Assembly (NCBI RefSeq): GCF_988242995.1 | Contig: NZ_OZ547043.1 | Strand: one strand, 5' to 3' | DNA: 64,000 nucleotides | Shown here: positions 39,969-52,659 of the stretch, piece after piece | How positions within the stretch are numbered: the stretch's first letter is position 1 | Layout of the letters: the number at the start of each line of letters is the position of its first letter | The notes under the pieces: model-generated | Seen by the model: only the letters and a program-made list of their open reading frames with translations | What the model was told of the DNA's origin: nothing | Database searches by the model: none | Made by a program: the position numbers and the translations under genes

Positions 39969-40826
39969 ATGCTGTTTGTGCTTATTCTAAGCCACCGGGC
40001 AGCATCATACGGGGCAATTATGGCCGCATTACCATACATGCAACTGTACATAGCTGATTACCTGGCTGACACCATGCATTTGTCAGCAGAGGAGCATGGT
40101 GCGTATTTGTTGCTGATGTTCAATTACTGGCAAACAGGAAAGCCAATACCTAAAAACAGGCTGGCAAAAATTGCCCGTCTGACTAACGAGCGATGGGCTG
40201 ATGTTGAACCATCCTTGCAGGAGTTTTTTTGCGATAACGGCGAGGAATGGGTGCATCTTCGGATTGAGGAAGATCTGGCATCAGTCAGGGAAAAATTAAC
40301 CAAAAAATCAGCCGCAGGAAAAGCATCTGTTCAGGCCAGAAGAAGCAGAAAGGAAGCAGATGTTCAAACAAAACAAGAGAGAAATTTAACAGGTGTTCAA
40401 ACAGATGTTGAAGTGGTGTTTGAACATGATGTCAACACAAAGGCAACTAATAAAGATACAGATAAAGATCTAAAAACAGATCCCCCCCTAAATCCCCCCC
40501 GGGGGAATCGAGGTGTCAAAAAGTTTGACCCTCTGGATATTGCTTTGCCGAACTGGATTTCTGTCTCGCTTTGGCGTGAGTGGGTTGAATTTCGCCAGGC
40601 ATTGCGAAAACCGATTCGAACGGAGCAGGGCGCTAACGGGGCGATACGGGAGCTGGAAAAATTCCGCCAGCAGGGTTTTTCACCTGAGCAGGTGATTCGA
40701 CACAGCATCGCCAATGAATACCAGGGCTTGTTCGCGCCGAAAGGTGTTCGACCTGAGACGTTACTCCGACAGGTTAACACCGTCTCGTTACCGGATAGTG
40801 CGATCCCGCCAGGCTTCAGGGGGTAA
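39969..40826 (+). CDS. ydaU: Phage replication initiation protein (O-like) YdaU
   Basis: 285 aa; precedes DnaC-like ydaV. Confidence 0.82.
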   Translation: MLFVLILSHRAASYGAIMAALPYMQLYIADYLADTMHLSAEEHGAYLLLMFNYWQTGKPIPKNRLAKIARLTNERWADVEPSLQEFFCDNGEEWVHLRIEEDLASVREKLTKKSAAGKASVQARRSRKEADVQTKQERNLTGVQTDVEVVFEHDVNTKATNKDTDKDLKTDPPLNPPRGNRGVKKFDPLDIALPNWISVSLWREWVEFRQALRKPIRTEQGANGAIRELEKFRQQGFSPEQVIRHSIANEYQGLFAPKGVRPETLLRQVNTVSLPDSAIPPGFRG

Positions 40827-40832
40827 CTGACC

Positions 40833-41579
40833 ATGAAAAATATTGCGACAGGCGATGTTCTTGAACGTATCCGCAGACTGGCCCCGTCACATGTAACCGC
40901 GCCATTCAAGACGGTAGCGGAGTGGCGCGAGTGGCAACTTTCCGAAGGCCAGAAACGTTGTGAGGAGATCAACCGTCAGAATCGTCAGTTGCGGGTGGAA
41001 AAAATTCTTAATCGCTCTGGCATCCAGCCATTGCACCGCAAATGCTCGTTTTCGAATTACCAGGTGCAGAACGAAGGGCAGCGATACGCGTTGAGTCAGG
41101 CGAAATCCATCGCTGATGAACTGATGACCGGGTGTACAAATTTTGCGTTCAGCGGAAAACCTGGTACCGGAAAAAACCATCTGGCGGCGGCTATCGGGAA
41201 TCGCCTGCTGAAAGATGGCCAGACAGTGATTGTGGTTACCGTGGCTGATGTCATGAGTGCCCTACACGCCAGCTATGACGACGGGCAATCAGGCGAAAAA
41301 TTTTTGCGGGAACTGTGCCAAGTGGATCTGCTGGTTCTTGATGAAATTGGCATTCAGCGCGAGACAAAAAACGAGCAGGTGGTGCTGCACCAGATTGTTG
41401 ATCGCCGGACAGCGTCGATGCGCAGCGTGGGGATGCTGACAAACCTGAATTATGAGGCCATGAAAACATTGCTCGGCGAGAGGATTATGGATCGCATGAC
41501 CATGAACGGCGGGCGATGGGTGAATTTTAACTGGGAGAGCTGGCGTCCGAATGTCGTCCAGCCAGGAATTGCGAAGTAA
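40833..41579 (+). CDS. ydaV: DnaC-like helicase loader (IstB-like ATPase) YdaV
   Basis: 248 aa; Walker [16 protein letters not shown], Walker B LLVLDEIG. Confidence 0.88.
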
Positions 41580-41601
41580 TTTTTACCGGGAGAAAAATTT
41601 A

Positions 41602-42363
41602 ATGGAGACTGTTTTTGACGCACTGAAAGCAATGGGAAAAGCCACATCCATAGAACTTGCTGCGCGACTTGATATCAGCCGTGAAGAAGTGCTGAACGAA
41701 CTATGGGAACTGAAAAAGGCTGGTTTCGTTGATAAAAGCGCGTACACCTGGCGTGTGGCTGATAACAACGTTCAGCAGGAACAGCCAGCGCCGGCAGAAC
41801 TGCCGGAAGAAACTACCACGGCAACAGTCGCGAAAATTTCAGAGAGCGATTTAACTGCGACGATTGAACAACGTGGTCCACTAACTGCGGATGAACTGGC
41901 TACGTTGTTCGGTACCACATCCCGCAAAGTGGCTTCAACGCTGGCAATGGCAATCAGCAAAGCTCGTCTGATTCGCGTTAATCAGAACGGTAAATTTCGT
42001 TACTGCATGCCGGGCGGTAATTTACCAGCAGAGCCGAAAGCTGCATCGGTAGCGGAAACAGATGGTAAAGCCTTTCCTCAGCTAGCCGGTGTTGCGTTAC
42101 CAGTACAGGAAGCTGCAACACAGGAAGATATTAAAACAGAAACTGTGGCGGACATTGTGCAGTCGTTGCCATCGTTTACTGAAACGCAAGCGGATAACCT
42201 GATTTTACCATCGCTGCATATGGCAAACCGTGAACTGCGTCGGGCGAAAAATCATGTCCAGAAGTGGGAGCGAGTCTGCGCCGCGCTGCGGGAGCTGAAC
42301 AAGCACCGGGATATTGTTCGACAGATTTTCGATTCCTCCAGTCGTATTGTGTCGGAAAAGTGA
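41602..42363 (+). CDS. ydaW: Rac prophage protein YdaW (apparently full-length here)
   Basis: about 253 aa from [30 protein letters not shown] (winged-helix-like N-terminus). Confidence 0.7.
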
Positions 42364-42378
42364 TTGCCGGAGGCACCT

Positions 42379-42810
42379 ATGGCAAAAGTATTTACACCAG
42401 AAGAGCGGGAAAAAATTAAAGGGCAGGTTGTTGAACTTGTACGTCTGAGCGGTCGCGAGACGTTACGGGCTCTGGAGGCTAAAACCGGTGCATCAAGGTA
42501 TTACATAAGCACTCTCGCCAGAGAACTGGTCGCCAGTGGTGATGTTTACAATTCAGGCTACGGATTATTCCCGTCTGAGCAGGCTCGTAAGGACTGGCAA
42601 AACGCCCGCAAAAAACTATCCAGGGCAAAGGTGAAAAAAACGGTTGTGGTTGATCCTGACCTTATCTGGTCATTACCAGACGGAGAAATACGCCGCTACG
42701 ACAGGCGCCTGAATATAATCTGTCGCGAGTGCCGGAAAAGCGAAGTTATGCAGCGTGTACTGGCATTTTACCAGAGTAATTTCAGGAGGTTGTCTGGTGA
42801 GCACGATTAA
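42379..42810 (+). CDS. Hypothetical protein with CxxC pair, function unknown
   Basis: 143 aa from MAKVFTPEEREKIKGQVVELV; contains IICRECRK. Confidence 0.55.
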   Translation: MAKVFTPEEREKIKGQVVELVRLSGRETLRALEAKTGASRYYISTLARELVASGDVYNSGYGLFPSEQARKDWQNARKKLSRAKVKKTVVVDPDLIWSLPDGEIRRYDRRLNIICRECRKSEVMQRVLAFYQSNFRRLSGEHD

Positions 42811-42843
42811 CTACTAGGGGGGATAACAATAAAATAAAGCCTC

Positions 42844-43884
42844 CTAGGAGGCTTTGATTATATTAAGCAAATGTTTTCCAATCGTTTCAGACATCTTCGG
42901 AGGGACCGCATTTCCTATTTGACGAGCCCGAGATTGCAAAGAACCAATAAATTTATAATCCAAAGGAAATGTTTGTAGACACGCTGCTTCACGAACCGAT
43001 ATTGCTCGATTTTGTGTTGGATGTCCAAAACGTCCATTTGAATAGCTAATACAACGAGTTGTTAGTCCGCTGGCTGGTTTGTCCCAACTCAAACGTCCAT
43101 ATACGTCTGTATGCCCTTTATGGTTACGATGGCATTCTAAAATCAATTCATCTGGCCAAAATTCTCGACTTCCACCTTCAGGAGTGCATTTTATTCTACG
43201 TAAATTAAGCTCTGATAAGCGTGCAGCTTCATGATCAGGAATACTATTATGCTTTTCTCCTGCTTCTATCTTCGGTAAATTAGCGATCCAGTCCTTTACT
43301 GTTGAATAGGGAGTATTTCCAACCCCATGTGTAGGAGAAGGCAATGCGACATAAAAATCCTTGGATGCAATGAGCACTAATCTTTCTCGCGTCTGTGGTA
43401 CACCGTACCACGCAGCTGGCATTACTTTATAATCTACACTATATCCCTTTGATGAAAGCATTTCTAAAAACATCATGAATGTTCCTTCATTTTTGTTAAA
43501 CTTTTGCATTCCTGGCACGTTTTCAACAAAAATAAAATCAGGCATATAATGCTCTACAAAGCGACTGAATTCCTTTAATAGATCTAATCGTGGATCATCA
43601 TTTTTCTTATTTGAGTTTTGCTTAGAGTACGGTTGACAAGGCGCACATCCTGAAAAAAGAATGTAATCATTACGATGTTTTTTTACTAACTTGTTTATGG
43701 CATTGTTGTCGATTAACCTAATGTCCGAGTTAATAAAAGCAGCCTGCGGGAAATTTGCACGAAATGAACTGGCTGCATCAACGTCGAAATCGAGGCCAAA
43801 AACAATATCCATTCCAGCTTGATGGAAACCTTGGCTGGTTCCACCACAACCGGAAAAGAAGTCAAACACTTTGATTTTTTTCAT
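42844..43884 (-). CDS. DNA (cytosine-5)-methyltransferase
   Basis: 346 aa from MKKIKVFDFFSGCGG; motif I FSGCGG, motif IV GCAPCQPYS, motif VI ENVPGM, motif VIII QTRERLVLIA, motif X GNAVPP; RBS AGAGGGA. Confidence 0.9.
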   Translation of the reverse strand: MKKIKVFDFFSGCGGTSQGFHQAGMDIVFGLDFDVDAASSFRANFPQAAFINSDIRLIDNNAINKLVKKHRNDYILFSGCAPCQPYSKQNSNKKNDDPRLDLLKEFSRFVEHYMPDFIFVENVPGMQKFNKNEGTFMMFLEMLSSKGYSVDYKVMPAAWYGVPQTRERLVLIASKDFYVALPSPTHGVGNTPYSTVKDWIANLPKIEAGEKHNSIPDHEAARLSELNLRRIKCTPEGGSREFWPDELILECHRNHKGHTDVYGRLSWDKPASGLTTRCISYSNGRFGHPTQNRAISVREAACLQTFPLDYKFIGSLQSRARQIGNAVPPKMSETIGKHLLNIIKAS

Positions 43885-43907
43885 TTTTCCCTCTGCATCC
43901 AGAATCA

Positions 43908-45737
43908 CTACCTAATGATACCACGGTCAAGAGCCTGAGTAATTATTTTTCTTATTTTTATAAATTCAGGCAATTCATTTTTAAGTCTTGCGGTCATCAT
44001 TTGTTGGAGGCAAAAAATTTCCTCTGCATTTACTTCTTCTTTATCATACAGGTGTTGCGCTAATAATCTTATTTGATTCTTATACAGTTCTGGATCATTA
44101 GAACTCCAGGTCTGTGAATCAATTATTTCTTTTTCACTTGGCGTAATTGCCTTTTCAATGAGTAATTGTTCGGGAGTATCAAATGGTAAATACTTCACTT
44201 TATTGAATGCATACTCAAGCACTTGCCTTTTGAGTCTATTAGATTCTTGTTCATTTTTTTTGCCATTACTACCACTGGCATTGATAATTAACTCGCAACC
44301 ATAATATTTGCACATTGTATTAACTAAATCAGCATCAGCAATTTCACTAATTCTTACTGGTTTTATTTTTTTGTTTTTATCACCATCAAGTAAAAACAAA
44401 ATATCATTGCGTTCTACCACAGCGTAACTGGGAAGATGCTTGCTTAAAATGGTCTCCGAACCACCTGGTATATAACTTACACTAAATGATAAGCTTAATC
44501 TTTCATCATTTTTAATCGCTTTATCTATAATTGCTTTAGCTAATTTATCTTCTACAATTATTGTTTTCTTGTTAATATCATGCCCTAGCTCTATAAAAGC
44601 TTCATCCGGTGCTATATTTTGAACTATTTTAGCTGTTTCACTCTCTTCATCAAAAACAAATAATTTAATGGCATCTTTGGGAAGAGTGTTCACAATAACA
44701 GGAGAATGGGTTGATATTACCACTTGATGTTTTTTCTGCTCAACAATAGAGTACAGAACATCCATCATCCTTTTTTGTGCACCAGGGTGAAGTGAAACTT
44801 CTGGTTCGTCAAGAAGAATTAATGAATTAGGTTTGGCCGAATAAATATTGAGTATTAGTGAAACTATTGCAAATTCACCACTTCCAGCAAACGCTTCTGT
44901 ATAGTTCAACTTATCAGTTGAAAGTAAAGCGGTTCCTCCTCTGGTTCCAAATAACCGATGCTCAAGAAATTTAATGACTTTATATTTTTTCCCTAATATA
45001 AATGAGACGTGCTCAACTAGTTCTGGCGCCAAGGTTATATTTTTAACAATGGTTTCCGCCCCCCAGAGTCTTAAATTACTTAGCTTTTCATCAAAAGCTT
45101 TCTTTATATATTTAGATTTGCTTCTGATATAGTCTTGCTTTGTAATTAATACACCACTCTTCTTCTTTCTTAATTTAAAATCAGAGTGATACATACATCT
45201 ATCAAATGCACTTATTTCCGATCTGAAATCTAGGAAAACCAATCCCTTCTTGATTTTTTTCCATCTGGTTGCATTACTATTAGCACCCAGATCATCCGAA
45301 ATACTCTCCATGTTATCACCAACAGATGGTCGACTTGTTTCCCAATAATCGATTGTTTTCTTGGTAGCATTGATACGTGCTTGGAGTATTTCAACTAAAC
45401 GGCCATCAGCATTTTTATATCCATATATATATCTAGGTTTAAGAGAACTGCCATCAGCAAGTTTTAGGTCAGGAAACTCATCTGTTTCAGTTGTGAACCA
45501 ATAACGAGTTATATTTTTACCATGTGGGCAACCAAATAGCGCTTTGATAACAGAACTTTTATTAGTTCCATTTTTTCCTACTAAAGCCGTTATAGGGAAC
45601 TGAAAATCGATCCTTGCATTCTGCTCTATATTTTTAAAGTATGGAAAACGGATATGTTGTATGAATGGTTCAAATTCACCGTTTTTTAACGCGCACTGGA
45701 GTGTTCGAATTTTGCTCTTGTATGCGGAAGTGCTCAT
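43908..45737 (-). CDS. ABC-type ATPase fused to C-terminal Toprim-like domain (OLD-family-like nuclease candidate)
   Basis: 609 aa; Walker A LVGKNGTNKSS, Walker B/D-loop SLILLDEPEVSLHP, H-loop VISTHSPVI; C-terminal IIVEDKLAKA glutamate and FLLDGDKN DxD suggest Toprim; 23 bp upstream of MTase on same strand. Confidence 0.7.
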   Translation of the reverse strand: MSTSAYKSKIRTLQCALKNGEFEPFIQHIRFPYFKNIEQNARIDFQFPITALVGKNGTNKSSVIKALFGCPHGKNITRYWFTTETDEFPDLKLADGSSLKPRYIYGYKNADGRLVEILQARINATKKTIDYWETSRPSVGDNMESISDDLGANSNATRWKKIKKGLVFLDFRSEISAFDRCMYHSDFKLRKKKSGVLITKQDYIRSKSKYIKKAFDEKLSNLRLWGAETIVKNITLAPELVEHVSFILGKKYKVIKFLEHRLFGTRGGTALLSTDKLNYTEAFAGSGEFAIVSLILNIYSAKPNSLILLDEPEVSLHPGAQKRMMDVLYSIVEQKKHQVVISTHSPVIVNTLPKDAIKLFVFDEESETAKIVQNIAPDEAFIELGHDINKKTIIVEDKLAKAIIDKAIKNDERLSLSFSVSYIPGGSETILSKHLPSYAVVERNDILFLLDGDKNKKIKPVRISEIADADLVNTMCKYYGCELIINASGSNGKKNEQESNRLKRQVLEYAFNKVKYLPFDTPEQLLIEKAITPSEKEIIDSQTWSSNDPELYKNQIRLLAQHLYDKEEVNAEEIFCLQQMMTARLKNELPEFIKIRKIITQALDRGIIR

Positions 45738-45885
45738 TGTTTACTAAAGTCCATAATAGGCTATTAACAGGTTGAGGATGACATGATAACGATTTTTAAT
45801 GCAGATAAAAGAGGTTTGTTGGTTAGCACACAACAGAAAAAGTGACCTTACCGCTTGAACGAAAGGTAAGGGTAAGTAGGCTGTG

Positions 45886-46038
45886 ATGCAGCAAAAGACG
45901 ATGTTAATCGCCCTGATTGTCATCTGTATTACCGTCGTTGTGATGGCACTGGTAACAAGGAAAGACTTCTGCGAGGTACAAATCCGAACCGGTCAGACGG
46001 AGGTCGCTGTCTTCACAGCTTACGAACCTGAGGAGTGA
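45886..46038 (+). CDS. Hok/Gef-family type I toxin
   Basis: 50 aa MQQKTMLIALIVICITVVVMALVTRKDFCEVQIRTGQTEVAVFTAYEPEE; single TM then conserved C-terminal tail; 3' hairpin GCGAGGGAGAAATCCCTCGC at 46047-46066; below ORF-track size cutoff. Confidence 0.8.
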   Translation: MQQKTMLIALIVICITVVVMALVTRKDFCEVQIRTGQTEVAVFTAYEPEE

Positions 46039-46503
46039 GAGACCAGGCGAGGGAGAAATCCCTCGCCACCTCTGATGAGTCAGGCATCCTCAACGCACCC
46101 GCACTTAACCAACTTTGGCGGGTATATTTTATCTGTGAATATTTTTATAAAAATAATGCCCACGCACAGCATAAAACAAAAAGTATTACAGATAAAAAAG
46201 GAACGTAATGTGCAGATTTGTTGTTTTCCATATTTACTCACCTTAATATGATTAACCCTAATAGGGTTGTTATTTCAGCGGTTTTCAAATGAGATATTAT
46301 GGTGATCTGGCAGATTTGCATAACATTAAAATTTAATTTGTTTAACCGCTTTTAATAATAAGCGTTGTTTGTATCCCAGCAATCTGTTGTTTGGTTTTTA
46401 TTCCATTAAGGTGGGGCTTTACACTGGAGCCAGTTTATTTATACTTCATACGTCAGCCTGAACAACTGGCATCTGCTGCGCTGCGCCATCGAGAGATTAA
46501 GAA

Positions 46504-47103
46504 ATGGCGCATATACAACTGGTCAAACAAACCTCTTCCGGATTACTTCTCCCGGCGACGCCGGAGAGTTGTGATTTTCTGCATCAAATCAAAATAGGCG
46601 AGTGGATACACGCAGACTTTAAGCGTGTGCGTAACTACGCATTCCACAAGCGTTTTTTCAAACTCCTGCAACTGGGATTCGATTACTGGACTCCGGTCGG
46701 TGGGGCGATCACGCCTCGCGAACGAGAACAGCTGTCTGGTTTCGTTGATTACCTGTGCGAATCAGTTGGTCGGGAACACACGCCAGCCCTGAGTGATGCC
46801 GCAGAGCAATATCTGAATACAGTTGCGACACGCAGAACCCGGGATACGGCATTGCTAAAGTCGTTTGAGGCTTTTCGCGAGTGGGTAACCATTCAGGCTG
46901 GATTTTACACCGAACATTTTTATCCGGACGGTAGCCGCGGGCGTCGGGCAAAATCTATCGCTTTTGCGAATATGGACGAAACCGAGTTTCAGCAGGTTTA
47001 TAAATCTGTTCTGAATGTGCTGTGGAACTGGATTCTGTTCCGTAAATTTTCCTCTCCGGAACAAGTCGAAAATGTGGCCGCGCAGCTGCTGGAGTTTGCG
47101 TAA
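46504..47103 (+). CDS. Phage nin-region protein, DUF1367 (YbcN-like)
   Basis: 199 aa; position between replication genes and Q. Confidence 0.6.
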   Translation: MAHIQLVKQTSSGLLLPATPESCDFLHQIKIGEWIHADFKRVRNYAFHKRFFKLLQLGFDYWTPVGGAITPREREQLSGFVDYLCESVGREHTPALSDAAEQYLNTVATRRTRDTALLKSFEAFREWVTIQAGFYTEHFYPDGSRGRRAKSIAFANMDETEFQQVYKSVLNVLWNWILFRKFSSPEQVENVAAQLLEFA

Positions 47104-47393
47104 TGGTGGATTTACGTAAAGCGGCGCGGGGGCAGATGTGCACCGTCAGAATTCCTGGCTACTGCAATCACAATCCCGAAACATCTGTGCTGGCGCATTA
47201 CAGGCTGGCGGGGACGTGCGGAACAGCGACAAAACCACACGATATGCAGGCAGCGATTGCCTGTAGCTCATGCCACGATTTAATCGACGGGCGGGTAAAA
47301 ACCAGCGATTACACCAAAGAAGAATTACGCCTGATGCATGCAGAAGGTGTTTTTCGCACACAAGAAATCTGGAGAAAGGAAGGTTATTTATGA
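47103..47393 (+). CDS. Phage nin-region Cys-rich protein, DUF1364 (YbcO-like)
   Basis: 96 aa with CxxC...CxxC spacing (CTVRIPGYC, CSSCHD). Confidence 0.6.
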   Translation: MVDLRKAARGQMCTVRIPGYCNHNPETSVLAHYRLAGTCGTATKPHDMQAAIACSSCHDLIDGRVKTSDYTKEELRLMHAEGVFRTQEIWRKEGYL

Positions 47394-47932
47394 TTTACCC
47401 AACAAATACAGGCAAAAGCGGGGAACACCTTCGTCTCACCACGCTGGAAAGTGTCTGGATTCAGGGAAAACTGCGCATGTGGGGGCGCTGGTCGTATATT
47501 GGCGGCGGTAAGACGGGAAATATGTTTAACCAGTTGCTGGCATCCAAAAAATTGACGAAAACAGCCGTCAATGAAGCCCTGCGCAGGATGAAAAAAGCGG
47601 GAATAGAGAAACCTGAGCTGGAAGCGTTTTTGCGAGAGATGATCAATGGCAAGCAAAAGACCTGGCTGGCGCATTGTACTGATGCAGAGGCGTTATGTAT
47701 TGATAGAGTCATAAGTGAGGTGCTGGCAGAGCATCCTGGATTGATTAGTGTCCTCCGGCAACGGTATGAAGGACGGGGGATGACTAAGCGCAAAATGGCT
47801 GAATTGCTAAATGATGCACATCCTGAGTGGTGTTTTAGCACATGCGAAAAGCGAATTGCTAATTGGTTGGCTGTTGCTGAGTATGCCCTATATATTCCCA
47901 TGCGAGAATTATTTGCTCAAAAAATAGCTTGA
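47390..47932 (+). CDS. Late-gene antiterminator Q-like protein
   Basis: 180 aa from MIYPTNTGKSGEHLRLTTLE; immediately upstream of lysis region. Confidence 0.6.
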   Translation: MIYPTNTGKSGEHLRLTTLESVWIQGKLRMWGRWSYIGGGKTGNMFNQLLASKKLTKTAVNEALRRMKKAGIEKPELEAFLREMINGKQKTWLAHCTDAEALCIDRVISEVLAEHPGLISVLRQRYEGRGMTKRKMAELLNDAHPEWCFSTCEKRIANWLAVAEYALYIPMRELFAQKIA

Positions 47933-48038
47933 TTTTTTACGCATAAACTGCTTCAATTCCGGTATGCTTCGCAAAGCTGTATCGCGAGGCGAACCAAGCG
48001 CATGAACTTTACCAGAACCCGCCATTGAGCGGGTTTTG

Positions 48039-48751
48039 TTGTGCACAGAAAACCCCCAGCTAGGCTGGGGGTTCCGGAAAGCTTTCAGCTTTGAGCCAGT
48101 TATTAAAACCCCTTTTGATTTGTTAAAACACTTTGCGGTCTGGCAACTGCAAGTGTCAAACAAGAAATCAAAAGGGGGTCCCAATGGGGAACGAAAAGAG
48201 CTTAGCGCACACCCGATGGAACTGTAAATATCACATAGTTTTTGCGCCAAAATACCGAAGACAGGTGTTCTACAGAGAGAAGCGTAGAGCAATAGGCAGT
48301 ATTTTGAGAAAGCTGTGTGAGTGGAAAAGCGTACGGATTCTGGAAGCTGAATGCTGTGCAGATTATATCCATATGCTTGTGGAGATCCCGCCCAAAATGA
48401 GCGTATCCGGCTTTATGGGATATCTGAAAGGGAAAAGCAGTCTGATGCTTTACGAGCAGTTTGGTGATTTGAAATTCAAATACAGGAACAGGGAGTTCTG
48501 GTGCAGAGGGTACTACGTCGATACAGTGGGTAAGAACACGGCGAAGATACAGGATTACATAAAGCACCAGCTTGAAGAGGATAAAATGGGAGAGCAGTTA
48601 TCGATTCCCTATCCGGGCAGCCCGTTTACGGGCCGTAAGTAACGAAGTTGGATGCAAATGTCAGATCGTGTGCGCCTGTTAGGGCGCGGCTGGTAAGAGA
48701 GCCTTATAGGCGCATTTGAAAAACCTCCGGCTATGCCGGAGGATATTTATT
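48039..48751 (+). mobile_element. IS200-type insertion sequence, copy B
   Basis: Near-identical to copy A, same orientation, same terminal hairpins. Confidence 0.9.
48184..48642 (+). CDS. tnpA: IS200/IS605 family Y1 transposase TnpA
   Basis: Identical 152 aa product to copy A. Confidence 0.92.
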   Translation: MGNEKSLAHTRWNCKYHIVFAPKYRRQVFYREKRRAIGSILRKLCEWKSVRILEAECCADYIHMLVEIPPKMSVSGFMGYLKGKSSLMLYEQFGDLKFKYRNREFWCRGYYVDTVGKNTAKIQDYIKHQLEEDKMGEQLSIPYPGSPFTGRK

Positions 48752-48864
48752 GTTTCTGGTACTGGCGAACCTGATGTTTCATTTCTGGAGCGCGATTCCT
48801 GGCGGAATACCTAGAATCGAGACATTCTGGTAAAATTGTTTTCAGTACAGGATGTGGAGGTGAG

Positions 48865-49434
48865 ATGAGAGAACTACCTAAAGATTATTTTTTAGGAGTA
48901 GATGATGAGCTCGTCGATTATCTTGAAAAACAAGGGGAAGAGACGATACGAGAGATTCATCTTTCTAACAAAACCAATGTTGAGAATGGATACAAACTTC
49001 TGAACATTCAGATTGTTGGAATTGGTTCATCTTTTTTATTGCTGACACAGAAAACTAATTTCGATTTTCTCACCGCCGGAATTACCACATTTACATTACT
49101 ATGGACATGGTGCGCCATTTACTTGGTATGTACTGGTTTATCTGTGAAGGTTAGGGGCCTGATCAATGCCCCTCCTGATCATCTATATCATGAAAAATAT
49201 AAGGATATGGAGCCCTCGAGCTTTAAAATATTCGCTGATGCAGGATATTTAGGACCTGATAAGTTATTGCCGCTTATACGAAGGTATCGCCTTGTTGACT
49301 TGAGTGATACAGCAAGAGAGTTACTGTTGGAAAATGAGAAAATCCGCACGAGTCTCGATAAAGCAAGGATGTATACCATCCTTGCTCCGGTAGCGGCGAT
49401 GTTTATCTCGGCTGTTTTTTTATATGTTCAATGA
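48865..49434 (+). CDS. Hypothetical membrane protein (cargo between Q and holin)
   Basis: 189 aa with hydrophobic segments (GIGSSFLLLTQ, TFTLLWTWCAIYLVCTGL, ILAPVAAMFISAVFLYV); AT-rich. Confidence 0.5.
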   Translation: MRELPKDYFLGVDDELVDYLEKQGEETIREIHLSNKTNVENGYKLLNIQIVGIGSSFLLLTQKTNFDFLTAGITTFTLLWTWCAIYLVCTGLSVKVRGLINAPPDHLYHEKYKDMEPSSFKIFADAGYLGPDKLLPLIRRYRLVDLSDTARELLLENEKIRTSLDKARMYTILAPVAAMFISAVFLYVQ

Positions 49435-49659
49435 CTGAGTCGGCAGAATCTCCAACAAAAACACGACGTGTAGCAAAGTCTGTAGTACTTTGTGTTGGAG
49501 TTGGTTTTGGTGCCACGGGGTGCTGAGGTTTATTTTCACCTTGTGGTTTGTTTTTTTCAGACATAAAAATCCTCTTTGTTTGAATTGTTACTTTTGGCGA
49601 TTTAACGATATCAAACACGAGTATATACCGCCAGAAGCTTAATCTGGCACTCCATCTGA

Positions 49660-49685
49660 CCCCGGCATGTCCCGGGGCTTTTTCG
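49660..49685 (+). terminator. Hairpin plus T-run upstream of holin (possible tR'-like terminator)
   Basis: CCCCGG-CATGTC-CCGGGG followed by CTTTTT. Confidence 0.4.
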
Positions 49686-49781
49686 TTGTTAGGCTCCGGA
49701 AACATCCTCGACTTCTTGTTAGCAAGCCTGAGAGCCTGAATCTTACACTTAGCACCATCCGAACTCTCGGAGGTGAGGCTT

Positions 49782-50123
49782 ATGAAAATGCACAATGCCC
49801 CTCATTCCTGGCCTGACTTACTGGAACTCTTACAAAGTTGGTGGCGTGGAGATACGCCGCTGGGTGCAGTGGTTATGTCAATTATTATGGCTGGTTTGCG
49901 CATTGCCTATTTTGGCGGTGGCGGCGGCTGGAAACGAAAAACGCTTGAGATTCTGCTTTGTGGTGCTCTGACGCTGACCTTTGCATCCGCGCTTGAGTAT
50001 GTCGGATGGCCTAAATCACTTTCTGTTGCCATTGGTGGTGGGGTGGGGCTGATTGGTGTTGATGCTATTCGTAGTGCGGCAATGAGGGTCATCGGTAACA
50101 AGTTCGGTGCCCATAAGGAGTAA
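49782..50123 (+). CDS. Class I holin with dual-start motif
   Basis: 113 aa from MKMHNAPHS (Met-Lys-Met like lambda S107/S105); hydrophobic segments; upstream of endolysin. Confidence 0.75.
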   Translation: MKMHNAPHSWPDLLELLQSWWRGDTPLGAVVMSIIMAGLRIAYFGGGGGWKRKTLEILLCGALTLTFASALEYVGWPKSLSVAIGGGVGLIGVDAIRSAAMRVIGNKFGAHKE

Positions 50124-50603: not shown

Positions 50604-51064
50604 GCAGAGTAACCGCGATTATCTCCGCTCTGGTTATCTGCATCGTCGTCTGCCTGTCATGGGGTGTTAATCATTACCGTGATAACGCCATCGCCTACAA
50701 AGAACAGCGCGACAAAAATGCCAGAGAACTGAAGCTGGCGAACGCGGCAATTACTGAGATGCAGATGCGTCAGCGTGATGTTGCTGCGCTCGATGCAAAA
50801 TACACGAAGGAGTTAGCTGATGCGAAAGCTGAAAATGATGCTCTGCGTGATGATGTTGCCGCTGGTCGTCGTCGGTTGCACATCAAAGCAGTCTGTCAGT
50901 CAGTGCGTGAAGCCACCACCGCCTCCGGCGTGGATAATGCAGCCTCCCCCCGACTGGCAGACACCGCTGAACGGGATTATTTCACCCTCCGGGAACGACT
51001 GGTAATGATGCAGGCCCAACTTGAAGGTGCTCAGCAATACATAACCGAGCAGTGTTTAAAGTAA
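50600..51064 (+). CDS. Spanin inner-membrane subunit Rz
   Basis: 154 aa [30 protein letters not shown]; overlaps endolysin stop. Confidence 0.9.
50820..51005 (+). CDS. Spanin outer-membrane lipoprotein Rz1 (embedded in Rz, +1 frame)
   Basis: 61 aa; lipobox VVGC and proline-rich [15 protein letters not shown]. Confidence 0.88.
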
Positions 51065-51201
51065 AATCTTAACTACAATATGATTCATTTTGATGATTGT
51101 TTCATAAGGAACAGTGAAGTAAGATCTAAGAGGAGTTAAATTTTATACAGTATAATCATAATATTGCAGCAAGGTGGTTATAATTGAAAGAATATTTAGA
51201 T

Positions 51202-52659
51202 ATGAATACATCTCATGTAAGAGTTGTTACTCATATGTGTGGGTTCCTGGTTTGGCTCTATAGTCTTTCAATGTTGCCACCAATGGTTGTAGCATTGTTT
51301 TATAAAGAAAAAAGCCTGTTTGTTTTCTTTATAACTTTCGTTATATTTTTTTGCATTGGTGGCGGAGCGTGGTATACAACTAAGAAATCTGGCATTCAAT
51401 TACGTACCCGTGATGGGTTTATTATAATTGTAATGTTTTGGATTTTGTTTTCTGTTATTAGTGCATTCCCTTTATGGATTGACTCAGAACTTAATTTAAC
51501 GTTCATTGATGCTCTGTTTGAAGGGGTTTCTGGAATAACAACAACAGGAGCAACTGTAATTGATGATGTTAGTTCATTACCTCGGGCATATTTGTACTAT
51601 CGGTCACAGTTAAATTTTATAGGTGGTTTAGGAGTTATTGTTCTGGCGGTTGCTGTATTGCCATTATTGGGTATTGGTGGTGCAAAGCTTTATCAGTCAG
51701 AAATGCCGGGGCCATTTAAGGATGACAAACTCACTCCCCGCCTGGCCGATACGTCACGGACACTGTGGATAACTTATTCTTTATTAGGTATTGCTTGTAT
51801 TGTCTGTTATAGACTTGCAGGAATGCCTTTGTTTGATGCTATTTGTCACGGGATTTCCACAGTTTCGCTTGGTGGTTTCTCAACTCATAGCGAGAGTATC
51901 GGATATTTTAATAACTATTTGGTTGAGCTGGTGGCTGGTTCTTTTTCCCTGCTATCGGCTTTCAACTTCACTCTTTGGTATATTGTTATTAGCAGGAAAA
52001 CGATAAAACCTTTAATCAGAGATATTGAACTTCGTTTCTTTCTGTTAATAGCCTTAGGTGTGATCATTGTTACCTCTTTCCAGGTCTGGCATATAGGTAT
52101 GTATGACTTGCATGGAAGTTTTATTCATTCGTTTTTTCTTGCCAGCTCCATGCTCACTGATAATGGTTTAGCTACGCAGGATTATGCAAGTTGGCCCACG
52201 CACACGATAGTGTTTTTGCTGTTGTCAAGTTTCTTTGGGGGATGTATAGGTTCAACTTGTGGTGGAATTAAGTCACTTCGATTTCTTATACTTTTCAAAC
52301 AAAGCAAACACGAGATAAATCAGCTTTCTCATCCCAGAGCGTTGTTGAGTGTAAATGTAGGAGGGAAGATAGTTACAGATCGTGTAATGAGGTCTGTATG
52401 GAGTTTCTTTTTTCTTTATACTCTCTTCACGGTGTTTTTTATACTGGTGTTAAATGGTATGGGATATGATTTTCTTACATCATTTGCAACAGTGGCTGCA
52501 TGCATTAATAATATGGGATTAGGTTTTGGGGCTACTGCATCGTCATTCGGAGTGCTTAATGACATTGCAAAATGTTTAATGTGCATAGCTATGATTCTTG
52601 GTCGCCTTGAAATTTATCCTGTTATTATATTGTTTTCAGGTTTTTTTTGGCGCTCCTAA
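51202..52659 (+). CDS. trkG: Potassium uptake protein TrkG (TrkH paralogue, prophage-borne)
   Basis: 485 aa from MNTSHVRVVTHMCGFLVWLYS; AT-rich codon usage. Confidence 0.92.
   Translation: MNTSHVRVVTHMCGFLVWLYSLSMLPPMVVALFYKEKSLFVFFITFVIFFCIGGGAWYTTKKSGIQLRTRDGFIIIVMFWILFSVISAFPLWIDSELNLTFIDALFEGVSGITTTGATVIDDVSSLPRAYLYYRSQLNFIGGLGVIVLAVAVLPLLGIGGAKLYQSEMPGPFKDDKLTPRLADTSRTLWITYSLLGIACIVCYRLAGMPLFDAICHGISTVSLGGFSTHSESIGYFNNYLVELVAGSFSLLSAFNFTLWYIVISRKTIKPLIRDIELRFFLLIALGVIIVTSFQVWHIGMYDLHGSFIHSFFLASSMLTDNGLATQDYASWPTHTIVFLLLSSFFGGCIGSTCGGIKSLRFLILFKQSKHEINQLSHPRALLSVNVGGKIVTDRVMRSVWSFFFLYTLFTVFFILVLNGMGYDFLTSFATVAACINNMGLGFGATASSFGVLNDIAKCLMCIAMILGRLEIYPVIILFSGFFWRS

Follow-up and report, generated by a model that had tools for sequence, protein, structure and literature searches.

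A prophage-borne pair of an OLD-type ATPase-Toprim protein and a C5-cytosine methyltransferase as a candidate methylation-coupled defence module

The window analysed in this study is a 64,000-nucleotide stretch of contig NZ_OZ547043.1 (RefSeq assembly GCF_988242995.1), and our subject is a cassette of two genes within it, one encoding an OLD-like ABC-ATPase/Toprim protein of 609 amino acids (aa) and the other a C5-cytosine DNA methyltransferase of 346 aa. These genes are kept together across many bacterial phyla, and the methylase and the ATPase-Toprim protein very probably constitute one functional unit, i.e., a methylation-linked defence module. The original prediction, made from the letters of the window, described two co-directional minus-strand genes of these lengths 23 bp apart, and both the open reading frame (ORF) listing and the RefSeq annotation agree with it.

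Results

Conserved pairing of the two genes

Conserved linkage to the methylase had been named in the original prediction as a test of the pairing. We scanned one genome per species and obtained 80 loci with relatives of the ATPase (31–63% identity) from Proteobacteria, Actinobacteria, Bacillota, Bacteroidota, Acidobacteria, Planctomycetota, Nitrospirota, Patescibacteria, and other phyla, and the six-frame ORFs of these loci were queried with the window methylase. A C5-methylase was present within 5 kb of the ATPase gene in 76 of the 80 loci, which amounts to 76 of the 77 informative ones. Among the four loci lacking it, two are contigs ending at the ATPase gene, one has just 498 bp upstream, and the last is L024 (see Discussion). 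The methylase gene was directly adjacent and co-directional in 54 loci, lying downstream of the ATPase gene in 33 and upstream in 21. Spacing was at most 30 bp, or the genes overlapped, in 50 of the 55 adjacent pairs, suggesting that they are co-transcribed. In one locus (L007) the ATPase gene is disrupted and the neighbouring methylase is intact. The linkage also held in the reverse direction. Four methylase homologues (60–78% identical) were sampled from contigs of Enterobacter, Klebsiella, Pseudomonas syringae, and Pasteurella, and in each case the ATPase gene came immediately upstream.

Within E. coli, 31 of 5426 complete genomes carry the 3.25 kb cassette stretch at ≥99% identity, among them that of ATCC 8739, where the two genes are annotated as 'ATP-dependent nuclease' and 'DNA cytosine methyltransferase'. 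The same architecture recurs in a second E. coli pair, whose ATPase is 39% identical to that of the window. This second pair (L082–L085 in E. coli, L095–L096 in Klebsiella) encodes a methylase of 346–349 aa and lies in lambdoid prophages, with the Q antiterminator on one side and the lysis genes on the other; it was found in eight complete E. coli genomes, and ten others gave a partial match covering the ATPase gene only (71–74% nucleotide identity). Methylase-only and nuclease-only remnants were also sought in E. coli, where the copies are few and clonal (31 genomes with the cassette and 8 with the paralogue).

A divergent OLD-type nuclease

The ATPase-Toprim gene occupies positions 43,908..45,737 of the minus strand (ORF listing; RefSeq product 'ATP-dependent nuclease'). 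Its ABC-ATPase domain spans approximately residues 26–360 (44,658..45,662, minus strand) and contains K60, AGSGE at 284–288, D310/E311, and H344. It is followed by a C-terminal Toprim plus helical domain at residues 372–609 (43,911..44,624, minus strand) with E396, D397, D451-G-D453, E523, and K553. The motifs on which the original prediction had relied are all found in the translation, namely ALVGKNGTNKSS, LILLDEPEVSLHP, ISTHSP, IIVEDK (393–398), and DGD (451–453), the last of which sits 55 residues past E396.

Sequence profiles recognized the ATPase part. In Pfam, AAA_21 (5.8e-20) and AAA_15 matched residues 49–350, and SMC_N matched too; no Toprim, Toprim_OLD, or DUF4435 was detected, nothing was matched beyond residue 350, and DUF2813 reached an E-value of 0.18. 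The Pfam expectation of the original prediction was therefore borne out for AAA_21/AAA_15 and for PF00145 in the methylase, and failed for Toprim/DUF4435. All NCBIfam matches, those to restriction models included, fell far under the curated cut-offs. A sequence search of the PDB matched the ATPase part only, and a profile of the C-terminal domain matched no PDB sequence. The best PADLOC match was HEC-04 (1.5e-34), in which residues 232–459 aligned with positions 160–383 of a 494-position profile, followed by the retron I-B ATPase-Toprim (3.8e-26, residues 41–464). Matches to the PADLOC Old and GajA profiles were restricted to approximately residues 301–370 around Walker B, and the AriA profiles matched the ATPase part alone. 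The PADLOC check proposed in the original prediction thus identified the methylase (MTase_II) and gave just a partial HEC-04 match for the ATPase protein. No profile in the libraries used (PADLOC-DB v2.0.0 and NCBIfam release 20, June 2026) models the ATPase-Toprim family as such; PHROG 3940 covers it and is labelled 'unknown function'.

As Pfam gives no Toprim match, we base the Toprim assignment on structure prediction and on invariant residues. The full-length model (mean predicted local distance difference test score, pLDDT, 80.6) matched GajA and Thermus OLD (TsOLD) best among PDB structures, over approximately 630–650 aligned columns, and its ATPase part matched GajA, TsOLD, PtuA, and SMC heads. 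Residues 372–609 were also modelled alone from 44 diverse sequences (pLDDT 91.3), and the top four Foldseek matches of this model were GajA and the C-terminal regions of Burkholderia and Xanthomonas OLD proteins; AriB was a further structural match of the Toprim region. All 75 family members compared share the ATPase residues K60 (Walker A), the AGSGE signature, D310/E311 (Walker B), and H344 (H-loop). Likewise, E396, D397, D451, G452, D453, and K553 of the Toprim region are invariant in 75 of 75 pairs, and E523 is conserved in 73, the other two having D. The Toprim nuclease fold that had been proposed for the C-terminal half is consequently upheld by the models, and the 609-aa protein is, as modelled, a divergent OLD-type ATPase-Toprim nuclease with intact catalytic residues.

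A profile of the C-terminal domain retrieved 726 cluster representatives (50% identity) among 1.84 billion, and the domain was always terminal in proteins of approximately 600 aa or in fragments thereof. The ATPase-Toprim family is small and discrete.

The methylase and its target recognition domain

The methylase gene extends over 42,844..43,884 on the minus strand, starting at the ATG used in RefSeq, and is separated from the ATPase gene by a 23-bp spacer (43,885..43,907, minus strand; ORF listing and RefSeq annotation). Its open frame reaches back to a GTG at 43,908, which would give 354 aa (42,844..43,908; ORF listing). PF00145 matched residues 4–339 at 5.9e-61, TIGR00675 (dcm) scored 166 bits against a cut-off of 100.65, and the PADLOC MTase_II match had an E-value of 1.3e-96. 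Motifs I, IV (PCQ, with the catalytic Cys), VI (ENV), VIII (QxRxR), and X, on which the original prediction had based its call of a complete C5-methylase, are present, and so is motif IX, with the target recognition domain (TRD) between motifs VIII and IX. The catalytic motifs are invariant across 75 of 75 partner methylases. Judged by these features, the 346-aa protein is an ordinary single-domain C5-cytosine methyltransferase. A methylase homologue with 63% identity carries the label 'Modification methylase HgiDII' (P0149), which is automatic and comes from one source, hinting at a GTCGAC-like target for the window methylase.

In part of the family, ATPase clade and methylase TRD class go together. 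ATPase clades 5–8, which form the window's group (approximately 30 loci), pair with methylases of TRD class 5 with three exceptions, and ATPase clade 1 (13 loci) always pairs with TRD class 8. Neighbour clustering over the 80 loci revealed no third conserved gene in the window's group or in clade 1, leaving the ATPase-Toprim protein as the only nuclease in these two-gene clades. Within the window's group, the TRD is 56–72% identical to that of the window methylase and is usually more conserved than the catalytic core (46–72%), and ATPase identity goes down to 34–41% except in the closest locus (63%). We read this as a two-gene regime, the window included, in which the ATPase-Toprim protein would be locked to one methylation specificity.

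Prophage context of the cassette and its relatives

All enterobacterial, Pseudomonas, and Pasteurella copies that we examined are prophage-borne and occupy classic moron positions, i.e., next to the integrase, in the interval separating the Q antiterminator from the lysis genes (once, in Klebsiella, beside hicAB), or directly 3' of a CI-like repressor. The last of these sites is the position of rexAB in lambda. In P. syringae (L097) and Pasteurella multocida (L098) the pair is co-directional with the upstream CI-like repressor gene (HTH_3 plus Peptidase_S24), and an Abi_alpha gene lies 0.7 kb from the pair in L098. The location downstream of the repressor in these two loci implies expression in the lysogen, and such placement is typical of prophage-encoded superinfection defence. 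In Fibrobacter (L069, 11,007–12,815) the pair is followed by two extra C5-methylases and an McrB-like GTPase in a defence-island setting. In 50,697 deposited phage genomes, tblastn with the ATPase as query returned nothing at E ≤ 1e-10, and the megablast match of the cassette to phages was limited to 88 bp of flank; on the basis of these empty searches, the cassette is seen in prophages and not in sequenced free phages.

In the window, the host element is a Rac-type E. coli prophage at ttcA. It is arranged as intR, xisR, recET, kilR, sieB, repressor/cro-like genes, ydaT, ydaV, DUF1627, DUF977, and the cassette, after which come hok/gef, DUF1367, DUF1364, DUF1133, and the lysis genes. The site given in the original prediction was right, as the cassette comes after the replication genes (ydaV-like, DUF1627, DUF977) and before hok/DUF1367/DUF1364/DUF1133, and so was the AT-richness, with a GC content of 0.31–0.41 in the cassette versus approximately 0.50 in the flanking phage genes. 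Other Rac-like prophages carry an opposite-strand KilA-N protein, an alpha/beta hydrolase, or hypothetical proteins between DUF977 and hok instead, and because the cargo differs in this way the slot is a variable cargo site.

At the 3' end of the cassette, a bidirectional terminator-like hairpin (42,835..42,856, both strands), identified by a consensus scan match only, separates the methylase gene from the convergent DUF977 gene. At the other end, a non-coding stretch (45,738..45,882, minus strand) that we noted on reading the sequence lies between the ATPase gene and a divergent Hok/Gef-family gene and presumably contains the promoter; a sigma-70 consensus scan of its minus strand upstream of the ATPase gene gave no match. 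The Hok/Gef-family type I toxin gene (45,883–46,038, plus strand) lies 146 bp from the ATPase start codon, and other Rac-like prophages have it at the border of their variable cargo slot. In 40,000–50,000, no Sok-like RNA exceeded the Rfam threshold.

Further along the prophage are an Rfam STnc490 Hfq-binding RNA (48,051–48,174, 144.6 bits) and, preceded by it, an IS200/IS605-type transposase ORF (48,133–48,642, 169 aa). Another AT-rich patch (51,000–51,750, GC 0.33–0.38) lies downstream and may represent a candidate cargo gene. The nearest E. coli Rac prophages cover just 94% of the window's 30,000–54,000 interval, in 3–4 pieces.

Discussion

Proposed mechanism

Given the roughly even balance of our confidence, we propose that the pair is a mobile methylation-coupled module, restriction-modification (R-M)-like in its logic and built around an OLD-type nuclease. 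In such a module the C5-methyltransferase would mark resident DNA, i.e., the host chromosome and the prophage, at a fixed target sequence. Its OLD-type partner, an ABC-ATPase sensor or motor fused to a two-metal Toprim nuclease, would use ATP to act on unmarked DNA such as that of an incoming phage, and the module, expressed from the prophage, would protect the lysogen against superinfection. We infer that methylation would shield DNA from the nuclease and that the substrate would be DNA rather than tRNA. The nuclease could read the target through its own recognition or could use the methylase as its specificity subunit, as in type III enzymes. A broader proposal, which we put forward tentatively and at somewhat less than an even chance, is that the pair represents a further unrecognized class of OLD nuclease and in effect a new R-M type, in which an ATP-dependent ABC-ATPase/Toprim effector reads the C5 methylation of its obligate partner, perhaps with the methylase as target-recognition subunit. 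This type would be ancient and spread over many phyla, and temperate phages would have taken it up repeatedly as a cassette for superinfection immunity.

A number of observations weigh against an R-M-like role. Locus L024 has an intact ATPase gene and no methylase within 6 kb. In the window cassette the nuclease gene stands 5' of the methylase gene, and no C-protein-like regulator was seen there. P2 Old and AriB, both OLD-type Toprim nucleases, cut tRNA and act by abortive infection according to PMC12445682 and PMC12409363. Above all, part of the family exists in multi-gene form. ATPase clade 3 has exchanged its partner methylase among at least five TRD classes, and it holds all extra restriction-type genes bar one, the exception being L075 in neighbouring clade 2. 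In seven Bacteroidota loci, R.HpaII (PF09561, 2e-144) is encoded between a methylase of a different subfamily and the ATPase gene; a BbrUII/HgiDII-family GHKL (MutL/MORC-like) 'restriction enzyme' is encoded in eight loci; and a GHKL/histidine-kinase-like protein of approximately 1000 aa is encoded in six, five of which also encode a receiver-domain protein. We read this as a multi-gene regime in which the ATPase-Toprim protein accompanies a dedicated restriction enzyme, and in clade 3 it resembles an auxiliary or backup element more than a sequence-specific restriction subunit. As one clade carries bona fide restriction enzymes, the functional coupling can be read otherwise than with the ATPase as the restriction subunit.

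The composition of the multi-gene loci can be described as follows. The HpaII-type loci (L045, L048, L051, L059, L061, L062, and L065) are three-gene operons of C5-methylase, R.HpaII, and, as third component, ATPase-Toprim, in which the gene for R.HpaII overlaps or abuts that for the ATPase. The loci with the GHKL variant lie among L030–L038 and L043. Seven of the eight also have Vsr, a gene found near 18 of the 80 loci overall, and a C-terminal TIGR02391 domain is present on the GHKL protein of L031, L032 (by clustering), L034, and L036. The four-gene variant comprises L041, L052, L054, L063, L075, and L077, with Vsr following in L041 and L063. In its protein of approximately 1000 aa, a BbrUII/HgiDII-like GHKL region at the N terminus is combined with a histidine-kinase-like ATPase at the C terminus, and the partner of approximately 550 aa in five of the six loci has a Response_reg_2 receiver domain. 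This arrangement looks like a signalling layer upon a methylation system.

Alternative explanations

The ATPase-Toprim protein could instead be a guard or backup effector of abortive infection, a latent suicide enzyme that is checked by, or monitors, the neighbouring methylase or R-M enzyme and fires on tRNA or any DNA once a phage interferes with it. PrrC with EcoprrI, PARIS in its sensing of Ocr, and the OLD-ABC/TOPRIM proteins of BREX follow such a logic, and we consider this reading the main rival, though less probable than the R-M-like one. Approximately 21 of the 80 loci place the module in an operon with a complete R-M system, and the overlapping or abutting genes of the HpaII clade, the methylase swaps tolerated by clade-3 ATPases, the reported tRNase activity of P2 Old and AriB, and the toxicity of HEC-04 on induction all fit such an effector, as do the OLD-ABC/TOPRIM 'backup suicidal effectors' inside BREX loci (PMC12839542). 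Yet in approximately 54 loci, the window included, the methylase is the sole partner, and a backup effector would have no primary restriction enzyme behind which to stand. If just a conserved methylase surface were sensed, the ATPase clades of the two-gene regime would not need to be so deeply locked to TRD classes, and the strict preference for C5 over N6 methylases is left unexplained. Much less probable, in our estimation, is an accessory role in genome maintenance, where the ATPase-Toprim protein would process damage caused by the methylase, such as T:G mismatches arising from 5-methylcytosine deamination or trapped covalent methylase-DNA adducts, and would resemble a Vsr/MutS-type or SbcCD-type function rather than defence. 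ABC ATPases do include MutS and Rad50, the linkage is confined to C5 methylases of any specificity, and certain loci add MutL-like GHKL ATPases and Vsr. However, 18 loci already have Vsr, which means that the ATPase-Toprim protein does not simply replace it; the nearest relatives of the protein are all defence effectors; and the module is sporadic, AT-rich, horizontally mobile, and prophage-borne, which is not the pattern of a housekeeping trait.

The original prediction had offered a further alternative, namely an orphan phage methylase that happens to stand beside an independent class-1 OLD-like abortive-infection nuclease. Both kinds of gene occur separately in phages and prophages, and stand-alone ATPase-TOPRIM defence genes are known (HEC-04/IbfA). 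Nevertheless, the linkage counts effectively exclude such chance neighbours for practical purposes, since the pair is kept in 76 of 77 informative loci from many phyla and in all four reverse cases, with near-zero spacing. The C-terminal domain, moreover, belongs to a small family confined to the architecture of approximately 600 aa, and we regard chance adjacency as barely credible.

Significance

Our literature searches gave no account of an OLD-type nuclease coupled to a C5-methylase, although a prior in-silico listing may exist, and mentions of the 'OLD family' beside restriction-modification concerned unrelated genes. A 2025 study of OLD proteins listed 11 more uncharacterised clades and left methyltransferases unmentioned, and a 2025 review of restriction-modification biology mentioned neither Toprim nor the OLD family. 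Taken one way, what appears to be new is the obligate partner of an OLD nuclease; taken the other way, it is the kind of nuclease in an R-M system. Work on OLD-type nucleases is moving fast, and each class is defined by its partner. If our proposal is true, a C5-methylase-partnered class would tie the OLD family to epigenetic marking of self and non-self, an ATP-dependent Toprim enzyme would join the list of restriction nucleases, and there would be an explanation for many of the 'orphan' cytosine methylases found in prophages of Enterobacteria, Pseudomonas, and Pasteurella. The system is compact (two genes, 2.9 kb) and is carried by the standard strain E. coli ATCC 8739, and it can be compared with the 39%-identical pair of other E. 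coli prophages. Natural material on primary versus backup roles of OLD-type effectors is offered by the multi-gene variants (HpaII, MORC-like GHKL, and GHKL/histidine-kinase with receiver).

Comparison with known systems

The window protein shares with the OLD family an N-terminal ABC ATPase with an insertion together with, at the C terminus, a Toprim domain with an acidic metal site (E...DxD) and a conserved Lys, and its best structural matches are GajA, TsOLD, the C-terminal region of the Burkholderia protein BpOLD, and AriB. In the broad sense it has the ATPase and Toprim architecture of the family, whereas the sequence profiles of the family do not recover it. Five OLD classes are distinguished, namely P2 Old/TsOLD (class 1), GajA (class 2), the retron Eco8 effector (class 3), AriA/AriB (class 4), and Cran1 (class 5), whose partners are none, a UvrD helicase, a retron, a split Toprim, and a membrane protein, respectively. 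Class 1 is stand-alone, unlike the present protein with its C5-methylase in 76 of 77 informative loci. No helicase is found among the conserved neighbours or in the window, in contrast to Gabija; there is no nearby reverse transcriptase gene, nor a retron RNA by Rfam in 40,000–50,000, as would be expected of retron I-B; the ATPase and Toprim parts are fused in the 609-aa protein, unlike those of PARIS; and the partner is a C5-methylase instead of the membrane protein of Cran1. Thus, the pair fits none of the neighbourhood-defined OLD classes 1–5.

HEC-04/IbfA is a stand-alone ABC ATPase-TOPRIM anti-phage gene of approximately 500–520 aa (Payne et al. 2024 preprint). HEC-04 is toxic on induction, and its defence depends on the lysine of Walker A and on the acidic Toprim residues. 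HEC-04/IbfA resembles the window protein in its fused ATPase-TOPRIM architecture and supplies the top PADLOC profile, but the match to this profile is partial, and HEC-04/IbfA is a single-gene system without a methylase, whereas the gene described here is paired with one. Type II R-M systems with a C5 methylase (HpaII, HgiDII/BbrUII) are likewise compact, mobile pairs of methylase and nuclease. They share the typical single-domain C5 methylase, and related loci hold R.HpaII or BbrUII/HgiDII-family enzymes. The difference is in the nuclease, which here is an ABC-ATPase/Toprim protein, predicted to be ATP-dependent and, with no NCBIfam restriction model reaching its cut-off, outside the known restriction endonuclease families. 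PrrC, in its association with EcoprrI, is a nuclease tied to a methylation-based immune system, and together with PARIS and the BREX-embedded OLD-ABC/TOPRIM proteins it resembles the present pair in that an ABC-ATPase-coupled nuclease is genetically tied to methylation-based immunity. In PrrC-EcoprrI and BREX, however, the nuclease is partnered with a type I or BREX N6-adenine system, whereas the partner here is a C5-cytosine methylase, usually with no further restriction component.

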